Source: Octopus vulgaris (taxonomy: Eukaryota). Taken from it: a stretch of 64,000 nt of DNA. The stretch spans positions 94,550,001 to 94,614,000 of the forward strand of contig OX597820.1 in assembly GCA_951406725.2 (NCBI GenBank), written 5' to 3'. The translations under genes were made by a program, and so were the position numbers. This document shows, in pieces, positions 1,302-16,060 of this stretch (position 1 is the first letter of the stretch; each line of letters opens with the position of its first letter). The notes beneath the pieces are model-generated. The model saw nothing but the letters and a program-made list of their open reading frames with translations, made no database searches and was not told the origin of the DNA.

Positions 1302-1331
1302 GCGTAACCAGTACTAATGGAGTTCAAAACG
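1302..1331 (+). CDS. micro-exon, 30 nt, phase 1-1, encodes (x)VTSTNGVQN
   Basis: tatatttctAG|gcgtaaccagtactaatggagttcaaaacg|GTaaat. Confidence 0.8.
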
Positions 1332-13300: not shown

Positions 13301-16060
13301 ATCTATGCAATCTAATACCCCTAATTCTAATACTGATTTACTGAAAAAAAGTGTGTATTGTAAATAAGGATATACAGTAAATTCAATTACAATATGCAGG
13401 AGAGTGTCATTGGACCTACTATCGCAACACCTAGGACACTTATTTCTGACATTGTAAAAATTTTACACAGTAAGGAATTTGCAGTAAGGTGAATGAATTG
13501 GTCAGCAGTCGACGATAAGCTTGAATTTAACATTTAAATCAGTCTCCTTCATTGAGGATATGTTAAAGTGAATGAAAATGGACTAGGATATTAATATGTC
13601 AGTACTAAGAGGCCAAAGGAAATATCACATCCAGAAATAACAAGAAGTGCAGATCCTGGCTTATGAAATATAAGTGTATTATCAGTTTACTAAAATGATG
13701 AATTGTTTATTACTATTTAATTGATATAATAATTTGTATGTGTGTATATTTAGATCGACTCCTTTCATTCGTATAGTAATTTCTTGAAAATAAAAATAAA
13801 ATTACGCATAATAATATTATTAATCAGTGCAAATTGCAGTCATAATATGCAAAATTGAATAGATAGACAAATTAACATCATTCATAGAAGATATGAAATT
13901 GCATTGTTTAAGGACATGCCATATTTATATCGCCGTAGAAACGTAAATAGCTCAACAATACATACGATATTAAAGCGATCTAATCTTGCCTAACCAGCAT
14001 AGTTTCCATCAGGAAACAGTCGTAAACGCACATATACACGTCTCCAGCATCTGTTTATTAATAATCAAAGTGAATTCACTCTTCAGAGTGAATACTCTAA
14101 ACATCAGGTATACCATCTAACAAGCACTTATCTAAGGAAAATATAATGAGCTCAACGTTATCAGCTTCAAGAGGCATTACAATCAAGCCTCTATTCCTTT
14201 ATGTGTAGAAACAGAAAAACATTCTATTGGGTTGGTGCATAATTATTGCGGGGTTTTTTTTCCAACAAACTTTATTCAACAAAAAAATGACAATATTTAA
14301 CAAAAACATCTTTAAATGACGGTCTGACCGTCTGCCAAGCAAACGGGAAGCAGTAATTGAAGTAGATGGTGAATATGCTCCGGAATAATCATTTAAAGAT
14401 GTTTTTGTTAAATGTTGTTATTGTTTTTGTTGAATAAAATTTGTTGAAAAAAACCCTGCAATAATTACGAACCAACCCAATACTTATTATGGTTCATCTG
14501 AAAGCTCAGGTACCAATTTATACCATAGCTTGGAATATTGTTGATACAACTACAACTTATTTCAACAAAGATTTGTCTATCTTGAAAGTTCTAGATACTG
14601 AAACAGTCTATAATATCCCGCAGTAGAAATTATAAGGATTTTTCAACATGTTGATTGATGCTGTTTATCCTAAACAAGGTAACAGAGAGTCGAGAAAATT
14701 ATGATTAGGAACTACGTAGAGTAAACTCTTTTGCTTATTTATACACATAATGCATACCTATATATCATTCAGTCATTCATTCTACCTACCTACCTACCTA
14801 CCTACCTACCTACCTACCTACCTACCTACCTACCTACCTACCGACCTACCTACCTACCTACCTACATACATACATACATACATACATACATACATACATA
14901 CGTACATACATATATACATGCATATATACATACATACATGCATGCATACATACTTACATACATACATACATTCATACATTATGGAAGTCGACTCGTGACA
15001 TGATAAAACTGCTTTCTAAACCCATTTGAGTCTAAGAAATATCTTAAGTTTTGTCTCTCCATCGCTAATGACGTATCGTATGACTCCTAAGGCCTGCAAG
15101 AGACCTACAAGTCATTCCTCACCGATCACAAGTCAGCCATTTAGCAATAGCCCGACCAATGGGTGTTGGGATCTACAAATCCAATAGAGTCCATTGGCTG
15201 ACCCACTTATTCTACTAAAGACGGTTCACAAGAGAACATAATGGATTTGTAGACGGGCCACCTTCATAATCCCACTTGTTATTGAGTAGGCCTGCCTTTG
15301 AGAAGCTGACACGACTGCGCTGGTCACGCAAAAATATTTGTTTCGTACCCTTCTCAGAAAGAGAGTTCACATGCTTCATATATTTACCAGCCCGTTTCGA
15401 TTGAATGTATGCAAACCATCCATTCATCCATCCATCCATCCAGTCAGCCAGCAAGCCAGCCATACATACATACATACATACATACATACATACATACATA
15501 CATACATACATACATACATACATACATGCATGCATGCATACATACATACAGGGTGGATGTAAAGTCGTATGATCATCATCGACAATTAATCTTGTTCCTA
15601 GACTTTAAGCACAATGGATGTCAGCAATTTCTGTGTTGAAATTAAATTCAATAACAACTTGCACAACACCGCAAAGACTCACCTACAAAGCCAAGTACTC
15701 TAGAAACAGGCAAGAGCAAGGTCTCTGGCTTTGTAATAAGGAAAGTGTAATTTGGGAGTAGTCTTTTGTCCAGTCAACATCCCAGATATTCCTCATTTCT
15801 TGCTCTGAGTTGTTTGAAATGAATAAATGAAGCACTGTTTCTGAATAATACAATGCTTACTCATTAAACCTCACTCTATCTTATAAATTATCGTCGGATC
15901 CTTCTTATGCTTTGACTGAATTACATGTAAAGCGAATGAATATATCTTCTGTTTTATTTAATTATTGTATCAAATTTTATTTTATTTCATTTTAGATGTG
16001 CAAATTCCTTTGACAAGTCTTCTGGCTTTGTTGACCTCGGCGATTTTGGTTTTTAATTGA
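1302..16060 (+). CDS. 3' portion (5' end outside window) of a spliced micro-exon gene for a predicted GPI-anchored, S/T/P/G-rich cell-surface protein; join(1302..1331,4349..4378,6741..6773,7460..7489,8674..8703,11505..11540,15996..16060)
   Basis: Every exon follows a pyrimidine-rich YAG acceptor and the six internal exons end in GTAA donors. Internal lengths are 30/30/33/30/30/36 nt, all phase 1-1. The joined frame is open and ends in ...GTSAAASFENPKYVQIPLTSLLALLTSAILVFN-TGA. Confidence 0.8.
3138..3166 (+). pseudogene. inactivated micro-exon copy (29 nt, donor GT changed to AT)
   Basis: Same flanks as the other micro-exons (tatatttctAG|aattgctgctaataaaacctctgcaaaag|ATaaattatg, versus |GTaaataatg at 1332). 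It is 1 nt short of a codon multiple and has no GT. Confidence 0.7.
4349..4378 (+). CDS. micro-exon, 30 nt, phase 1-1, DTGPTPGRAR
   Basis: atatttccAG|acactggcccaactcctggaagagcaagag|GTaaat. Confidence 0.82.
6741..6773 (+). CDS. micro-exon, 33 nt, phase 1-1, VPAAATTTTPK
   Basis: gtatttctAG|tcccagccgctgctactactaccactccaaaag|GTaatt. Confidence 0.82.
7460..7489 (+). CDS. micro-exon, 30 nt, phase 1-1, DNRSAGGGVP
   Basis: tattttcAG|acaatagatcagcaggtggaggtgtaccaa|GTaagt. Confidence 0.82.
8674..8703 (+). CDS. micro-exon, 30 nt, phase 1-1, NITNPTTHKK
   Basis: tatatttctAG|acataaccaatcctactacacataaaaaag|GTaacg. Confidence 0.82.
8805..8886 (+). repeat. minisatellite, five copies of core GTATAAGATTCCT (14-18 bp period)
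   Basis: Units start at 8805, 8823, 8841, 8855 and 8873. Confidence 0.9.
9630..10060 (-). mobile_element. Penelope-like element fragment (degenerate GIY-YIG endonuclease)
   Basis: ORF 9749-10015 reads NIVYGL..C..TTYIEET...ERE, like the PLE GIY-YIG motif VVY.I.C..C...YIGET...ER. Confidence 0.6.
10415..10620 (+). mobile_element. tRNA-derived SINE (abundant family in this window)
   Basis: A-box-like ctggcagaatcgttag and core tttcatcccttt..gggatcgatgaaataagtaccagt shared with many copies. Confidence 0.75.
11505..11540 (+). CDS. micro-exon, 36 nt, phase 1-1, GTSAAASFENPK (candidate GPI omega site S-A-A)
   Basis: gcattttccAG|ggactagtgctgctgcaagctttgaaaacccaaaat|GTaagt. Confidence 0.8.
11728..12112 (-). 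mobile_element. full-length tRNA-derived SINE of a second family with a 10-bp target-site duplication
   Basis: The minus strand starts GTGGAGGCGCAATGGCCCAGTGGTTAGGGCAGCGGACTCGCG..GGTTTCGATTCC (A and B boxes). It is flanked by tatttatata at 11718-11727 and 12113-12122. Confidence 0.85.
12743..13061. repeat. (AAT)n and (ATT)n microsatellites with an intervening minus-strand SINE fragment (about 12800-12893)
   Basis: Direct reading of the sequence. Confidence 0.9.
14227..14480 (+). mobile_element. mariner-derived MITE / internally deleted mariner
   Basis: About 90-bp terminal inverted repeats starting ttgggttggtgcataa, with TA on both sides (14225-14226, 14481-14482). The core encodes DRLPSKREAVIEVDGEYAPE*, a mariner transposase C-terminus. 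Confidence 0.85.
14781..14980. repeat. (CTAC)n/(CATA)n tetranucleotide microsatellite; a second (CATC)n/(CATA)n tract lies at 15417-15549
   Basis: Direct reading of the sequence. Confidence 0.95.
15996..16060 (+). CDS. terminal coding exon, YVQIPLTSLLALLTSAILVFN* (hydrophobic C-terminal GPI-type signal)
   Basis: Strong T-rich acceptor (ttttattttatttcattttAG). The phase-1 entry matches the preceding exon. An uncharged hydrophobic run leads directly to TGA at 16058-16060. Confidence 0.78.

Follow-up and report, generated by a model that had tools for sequence, protein, structure and literature searches.

Three recent copies of an octopus micro-exon gene, predicted to encode a short GPI-anchored surface peptide whose stalk exons are gained and lost as whole cassettes

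We analyzed a 64,000-nucleotide stretch of the Octopus vulgaris genome (C7:94,550,001-94,614,000, hereafter the window; 150 kb on each side was also examined), in which an earlier note had proposed a gene that builds a variable glycosylphosphatidylinositol (GPI)-anchored surface protein from tiny exons. An octopus gene is present here in three recent copies, one of them inside the window, and these copies constitute a real, spliced micro-exon gene family. In our reading, to which we assign a probability of about 0.72, the intact copies are spliced and encode a predicted short, glycosylated, GPI-anchored peptide; the micro-exons of its stalk are gained and lost as 1-2 kb cassettes and are likely under diversifying selection; and the copy in the window is itself likely a pseudogene.

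The region is made up of three segmental copies. Copy A lies upstream of the window on the - strand (C7:94,493,000-94,520,400), copy B is the window copy, ~97% identical to the others, and copy C lies downstream on the - strand (C7:94,641,000-94,695,200). A search of the 2.8-Gb genome for the last two exons and the upstream region found each of them exactly three times, and the cassette pattern has 15 exact matches, every one within C7:94.50-94.69 Mb (a reversed control gave 0). We noted that the order of the duplicated blocks over C7:94,529,400-94,625,000 suggests that the window unit is inverted within a tandem triplication, either in the animal or through an assembly flip. The features of copy B, in window coordinates, are as follows.

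830..9636, + strand: tandem array of degenerate intron-exon cassettes delineated by self-BLAST, with 6 exon-bearing copies and partial exon-less ones
1302..1331, + strand: micro-exon of 30 nt, phase 1-1, with orthologous exons in copies A and C; predicted to complete the signal peptide after exon 1 in the intact copies
3138..3166, + strand: cassette exon of 29 nt that is dead in copies A, B and C alike; donor GT mutated to AT
4349..4378, + strand: micro-exon of 30 nt, phase 1-1
6741..6773, + strand: Thr-rich micro-exon of 33 nt, phase 1-1, a length exclusive to copy B
7460..7489, + strand: micro-exon of 30 nt, phase 1-1, whose nearest cassette relatives are the 21-nt class of A and C
8674..8703, + strand: micro-exon of 30 nt, phase 1-1, differing from its C counterpart at 6 of 30 bases against ~2% in the flanks
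11505..11540, + strand: penultimate exon of 36 nt, outside the cassette array, with a small-residue run that is the likely GPI attachment site; donor used in 4/4 sequencing runs
15996..16060, + strand: last exon, coding part up to TGA, with an uncharged hydrophobic tail; coding sequence identical in A, B and C, acceptor used in 4/4 runs
16061..17500, + strand: 3' untranslated region, lacking 49-nt and 17-nt stretches present in A, C and RNA contigs

The earlier note had called six live micro-exons with AG/GT borders, all in phase 1-1, five of them inside copies of a duplicated intron cassette. Both calls hold: all six exons lie at the positions listed above, with YAG on the 5' side and GTAA on the 3' side, and are open in phase 1-1, and the cassette holding five of them recurs in copies that are pairwise 68-87% identical by self-BLAST. 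The flanks of the 36-nt exon (11505-11540) match no array cassette. None of the ordered exon pairs of copy B creates a stop at its joint; combining the five array exons in all 32 possible ways gives, by computation, 32 different open products, in agreement with the proposal that any subset can be skipped without a frameshift. As a chance control, splice-score cut-offs were set post hoc at the weakest of the six exons; the + strand of positions 1-16000 then returned the six and no others, all of them open and divisible by 3 in length, and the other ~112 kb (+ strand 16100-63900 and the whole - strand) returned two matches, whose lengths are not divisible by 3. A stretch of 20 nt at 637-656 (+ strand) resembles an exon, with fair splice sites, and has the same sequence in copies A, B and C; spliced in after exon 1, it could act as a poison exon, shifting the frame so that the 1302 exon opens with a stop.

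Across the three copies we counted 34 cassettes, of which 27 are live: 4 of 7 in A, 5 of 6 in B and 18 of 21 in C. All 27 live exons are open, symmetric and 21, 30 or 33 nt long. The cassettes had been described as encoding 10 residues each, but the units are not uniform, and 14 of the 27 live ones encode 7 residues. The seven dead cassettes have lost a donor, an acceptor or the exon. The micro-exon unit is a 1-2 kb intron-exon cassette that duplicates and dies whole. In the C array, cassettes are spaced 957-2,255 bp apart in 19 of 20 intervals, the remaining interval of 5,606 bp carrying a helicase-like insertion, and a three-cassette higher-order unit of 4,513 bp is present three times at 95-98% identity; across all units, cassette identity ranges from 68% to 98%. 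The variation visible here is at the DNA level, and consists of cassette gain and loss (4, 5 and 18 live exons) together with fast replacement changes. PIF1-like helicase reading frames at C7:94,652,306-94,653,531, between the last two cassettes of C, belong to an insertion that we take to be Helitron-like.

Expression was followed in 4 of 24 sequencing runs, from 4 studies, which were taken as RNA by guess. The joint between the last two exons (11540→15996, GT..AG) is present in contigs of all four runs and all four studies. Among the joints listed, this last joint is seen and none lies between cassette exons. The RNA pieces compared do not resemble the window copy, however. Fourteen contig pieces (those outside common repeats among 32 records) were set against B, and in 14/14 the numbers of mismatches and gaps are approximately those by which A or C departs from B, with exact agreement in several; the RNA contigs also carry the A/C-specific 3' indels, that is, the 49-nt and 17-nt stretches missing from B. 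Since these pieces match the A/C type, the RNA evidence belongs to the neighbors A and C.

The gene had been expected to continue upstream to a signal-peptide exon, which turned out to be the case for the paralogues A and C, but not for B. Predicted exon 1 of C (C7:94,695,089-94,695,044, 46 nt) has an ATG, 15 codons with a hydrophobic core (mean hydropathy 3.13 over residues 4-15) and a phase-1 GTGAGT donor, with a TATA-like box in front, and A carries an identical exon 1 at C7:94,520,251-94,520,206. There is no third copy of this exon in the genome. In B, a 197-bp deletion after C7:94,538,894 (window -11,106), 12.4 kb upstream of the first micro-exon, has removed both the TATA-like box and exon 1. 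No convincing signal-peptide exon was found upstream of B: candidates at -14,250, -2,795 and -1,119 were rejected as lying within apparent antisense retroelement sequence (types judged by eye), and 5' exons beyond the duplicated unit were dropped, exon 1 being located inside that unit. Antisense retroelement remains in intron 1 just upstream of the window (L025:6000-10000) give rise to false signal-peptide candidates. Because exon 1 is deleted and all 14 RNA pieces are unlike B, we regard copy B as likely a recently decapitated pseudogene; the claim that the window copy makes the protein is not upheld, its predicted exon 1 being gone and no checked RNA piece being B-like.

The conceptual precursors of A and C are 82 and 189 aa long, built from 4 and 18 live micro-exons, respectively. 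Their stalks (~33 aa with 42% S+T in A, ~140 aa with 33% S+T in C) are Ser/Thr/Pro-rich and free of Cys, with 0-2 N-glycosylation sequons; there is no folded domain, so the stalk is the entire mature product. Toward the C-terminus come small residues ~30 from the end, a polar spacer and an uncharged tail with no cytoplasmic part; the last 20 residues are uncharged, and the tail runs to the stop (mean hydropathy 1.75 over the last 17 residues). GPI-anchored proteins are laid out with an N-terminal signal, a small-residue site, a polar spacer and a hydrophobic tail ending at the stop. Anchoring follows a two-signal rule (PMC7446130). On hydropathy and composition, A and C are thus predicted to produce a short, glycosylated, GPI-anchored surface peptide; the proposed GPI-anchored, mucin-like surface protein is retained for these two copies, with their predicted signal peptide, S/T/P-rich stalk and GPI-type tail, but not for copy B. 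A HMMER search of the tail exon against 1.84 billion representatives gave 0 matches (32-residue query, including 11 intron-derived residues), Pfam gave 0 matches and Atlas no usable match; a 21-residue hydrophobic query is too weak for such blank protein searches to carry meaning.

Next, we compared the divergence of the exons with that of their surroundings. Orthologous exons of A, B and C show 15 changes in 126 sites versus 39 in 2,121 flanking sites, an ~6-fold faster rate (Fisher p 1e-7). Fourteen of the 15 changes fall in whole codons, all with a differing residue, and the fifteenth lies in a split codon. There is no excess in the dead cassette (1/29) or in the tail (0/62). Between B and C, the exons differ at 13 of 126 sites against a background of 3.5% (p 5e-4), and the 21-nt class required a minimum of 19 changes over 21 exon sites versus 43 over 317 flank sites. 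Among 21 distinct live exon sequences, replacement changes outnumber silent ones by 76 to 11, against an expectation of 73% replacement (ratio of replacement to silent rates, pN/pS, ~2.5; p 0.0013); the counts were taken on minimum spanning trees that left out the two dead 30-nt A exons, the 33-nt exon and the 29-nt copies. Diversifying selection on the exposed peptide is therefore likely, although not proven.

Several observations pull in the other direction. The use of exon 1 is a prediction, and the signal-peptide and GPI assignments draw on sequence features; queries with the tail exon found no protein relative, so that function rests on architecture. No joint upstream of 11505 is among those listed, and the runs were RNA by guess. 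The five live exons of B keep their splice sites and frames, so exon 1 may have been lost very recently, or its absence may reflect an allele or an assembly error. Single exon pairs such as B3/C3, A7/C21, A6/C20 and C5/C17 show no excess of changes, and the variable positions of the 21-nt class are distributed 5/9/5 over the codon positions. Lastly, the tests compare short, related sequences by a spanning-tree approximation, against flanks that gene conversion may homogenize.

These points bear on the alternatives. The exons might merely seem fast, in an ordinary mucin-like spacer under runaway tandem duplication, with introns that are homogenized or AT-rich and slow. Segmental duplications do extend across the whole region, the neighboring CUB gene included, the exons are visibly GC-richer than their flanks, and low-complexity stalks tolerate change. 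Nevertheless, relaxed constraint predicts a pN/pS near 1 rather than the observed 2.5 (76 versus 11), and the tail exon, likewise GC-richer than the introns, has 0/62 differences, with exon 1 identical in A and C; we consider such a spacer unlikely. We hold it to be slightly less probable still that the hydrophobic end is a tail anchor, or that the peptide is simply secreted: the tail hydropathy is moderate (1.75), but the combination of N-terminal signal, small residues, polar spacer and uncharged tail is the usual layout of a GPI-anchored protein. It is also improbable, in our view, that the window copy is functional, with the exon-1 deletion a rare allele or an assembly error, or with an alternative start. 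For this speak the splice sites and frames retained in 5/5 live cassette exons, the replacement changes that B has of its own, an ATG at 602 in frame with a phase-1 donor at 657, and contigs of runs X1, X3 and X6 that break at 11507, the sole base of the penultimate exon at which B differs from A and C. By contrast, the deletion takes the TATA-like box and the whole exon, the 602 start reads as lacking a hydrophobic core, and the X3 and X6 contigs run unbroken as A-/C-type across the last exon. We set aside expression of B as the cause of the break on this last ground; its occurrence in three runs suggests that both bases exist among the expressed copies of other animals.

The view that many stalk variants arise from each intact gene by micro-exon skipping, put forward in the earlier note, is compatible with DNA-level cassette turnover, and we regard it as possible but leaning toward doubtful, with better prospects than the three alternatives above. 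All live exons are symmetric and no joint creates a stop. Moreover, the contig of run X7 over the last joint, A-type by mismatch count, extends 70 letters upstream (301 minus 231), which equals 36 + 30 + 4, and the 4 letters correspond to the 3' end common to several different upstream exons, where two splicing paths would merge; judged from length, the contig might thus end at such a fork. A chance contig end would account for this length just as well, as would a pair of alleles of which one has a dead donor like that of A at C7:94,503,459, and the joints listed include no skipping joint. Furthermore, symmetry is already required for cassette duplication that keeps the frame, so skipping is not needed to explain it.

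The reading that we favor, namely cassette turnover in intact copies predicted to encode a GPI-anchored peptide, can be laid out as a series of steps. The 46-nt exon 1 and the first micro-exon, both observed in the sequence, would together encode a signal peptide that is presumably cleaved. Unequal crossing-over would add or remove cassettes, a process to which the observed cassette numbers and the 4.5-kb higher-order repeat point. Since all live exons have lengths divisible by three and lie in phase 1-1, each event would change the stalk by 7-11 residues and leave the frame intact. A splice-site mutation would delete a unit equally cleanly (7 of 34 cassettes are observed to be dead). Replacement changes would build up in the exons faster than neutral, as the statistics indicate, probably through selection, and the last two exons would supply a constant GPI-type signal. 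What results would be a glycan display of the CD24 type, differing from copy to copy and probably from one individual to another, and most likely acting at a recognition interface, whether with pathogens, between self and non-self or between gametes.

The polymorphic mucins of Schistosoma mansoni (SmPoMuc) carry a 27-bp exon that sits, together with the introns on either side of it, in a tandemly repeated genomic unit of ~1 kb, present up to ~20 times (PMC2576457); unequal crossing-over has been proposed, and the genes form a small multigene family whose repeats encode a glycosylatable mucin-like stretch. The octopus gene resembles them in its tiny exon (21-33 bp) held with flanking introns in a tandem repeat (21 copies in C), in belonging to a small multigene family and in its glycosylatable, mucin-like repeat product. 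SmPoMuc repeats are >93% identical with near-uniform exons, whereas octopus units range from 68% to 98% and their exons outpace the introns; SmPoMuc repeats are separated by polypurine microsatellites, and no such tract is present in window 830-9636; and 13 further exons follow the SmPoMuc repeat, whereas in the octopus the mature product consists of the stalk alone, followed by a GPI-type tail. SmPoMuc also has transcripts with more repeats than the gene (exon repetition). The schistosome is a parasite and the octopus a host animal, and the likeness is one of layout.

The micro-exon genes (MEGs), to which the earlier note had likened the octopus gene, are described as flatworm-restricted (PMC4350168, PMC8293314), with a signal peptide, short symmetric exons, and a mature part that evolves faster than the signal part with a ratio of nonsynonymous to synonymous rates (dN/dS) above 1 (PMC4350168, PMC8293314, PMC10526429). 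As in MEGs, symmetric exons no longer than 36 bp form the greater part of the octopus coding region (81% in C, 55% in A, 63% in B), and the mature part is accelerated (cassette exons versus flanks and tail); the hydrophobic first exon of A and C, deleted in B, is predicted to begin a signal peptide. In those accounts, MEG exons are mostly unique 15-bp pieces and splice isoforms are established, whereas the octopus exons derive from one repeated cassette and splicing variation so far amounts to one contig-length hint (X7). Membership in the MEGs by descent is unlikely because the genome is that of an octopus. The proposal of an analogous system is upheld as to its MEG-like layout; for mechanism, SmPoMuc is the closer analogue, and the visible variation is at the DNA level.

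Two vertebrate systems offer partial parallels. CD24 has a ~30-residue mature peptide that serves as a glycan scaffold on a GPI anchor (PMC9990587). Copy A, with ~33 predicted residues, would share this short scaffold design, and its likeness to the vertebrate protein is one of plan. CD52 is, like CD24, a short GPI-anchored glycopeptide, and to our knowledge neither is built from micro-exon arrays. Among frog mucins, Xenopus FIM-B.1 has a repeat-per-exon layout. Xenopus FIM-C.1 is polymorphic through alternative splicing (PMC7177656). As in the octopus gene, the number of mucin repeats in these proteins is varied by the use of repeated units; unlike its product, they are large, secreted, gel-forming mucins with cysteine-rich domains and no GPI tail. 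The octopus gene would work like SmPoMuc, MEGs and CD24 without necessarily belonging to any of them.

Each segmental copy also holds part or all of a convergent gene for a multi-CUB membrane protein. In the window, positions 21200-49672 (- strand) carry a partial, convergent duplicate (the 3' part, 7 exons matched) of this single-pass membrane-protein gene; C7:94.40-94.49 Mb holds the full copy, and another partial one, the third, is located near 94.63 Mb. The micro-exons were considered as the 3' end of this gene and ruled out, as the CUB gene is read from the other strand, toward them, and possesses a membrane-spanning last exon itself. A CUB exon in the window is 100% identical to a protein named from Octopus sinensis; the cluster of that protein also has members from O. 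vulgaris and O. bimaculoides. The exons of the multi-CUB duplicate are matched, too, by separate short CUB proteins assigned to O. sinensis, which may reflect a duplication shared between species. Beyond the cluster, an exon at C7:94,759,593 (+ strand) with ankyrin-repeat-like sequence starts the next gene.

We found no description of this gene in octopus- and cephalopod-directed literature searches or in a broader one, judged from their listings, in a set with most subscription journals and the public gene models outside its coverage. Its three copies, dead cassettes and fresh higher-order repeat present micro-exon birth and death in progress, and its distinctive feature is that cassette turnover, exon-specific acceleration and a GPI-type end occur together. 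More speculatively, and with less confidence than we grant to exon skipping, the family could represent an independent MEG/SmPoMuc-like system in a free-living mollusc, in which a GPI-anchored glycopeptide varied by cassette number, positively selected sequence and exon skipping would provide an individual surface glycan code for pathogen defence, self-recognition or fertilisation. A layout parallel to that of the schistosome genes occurs in an octopus, and the signal of likely diversifying selection on a predicted surface-exposed peptide makes the family a concrete candidate for a cephalopod recognition molecule.

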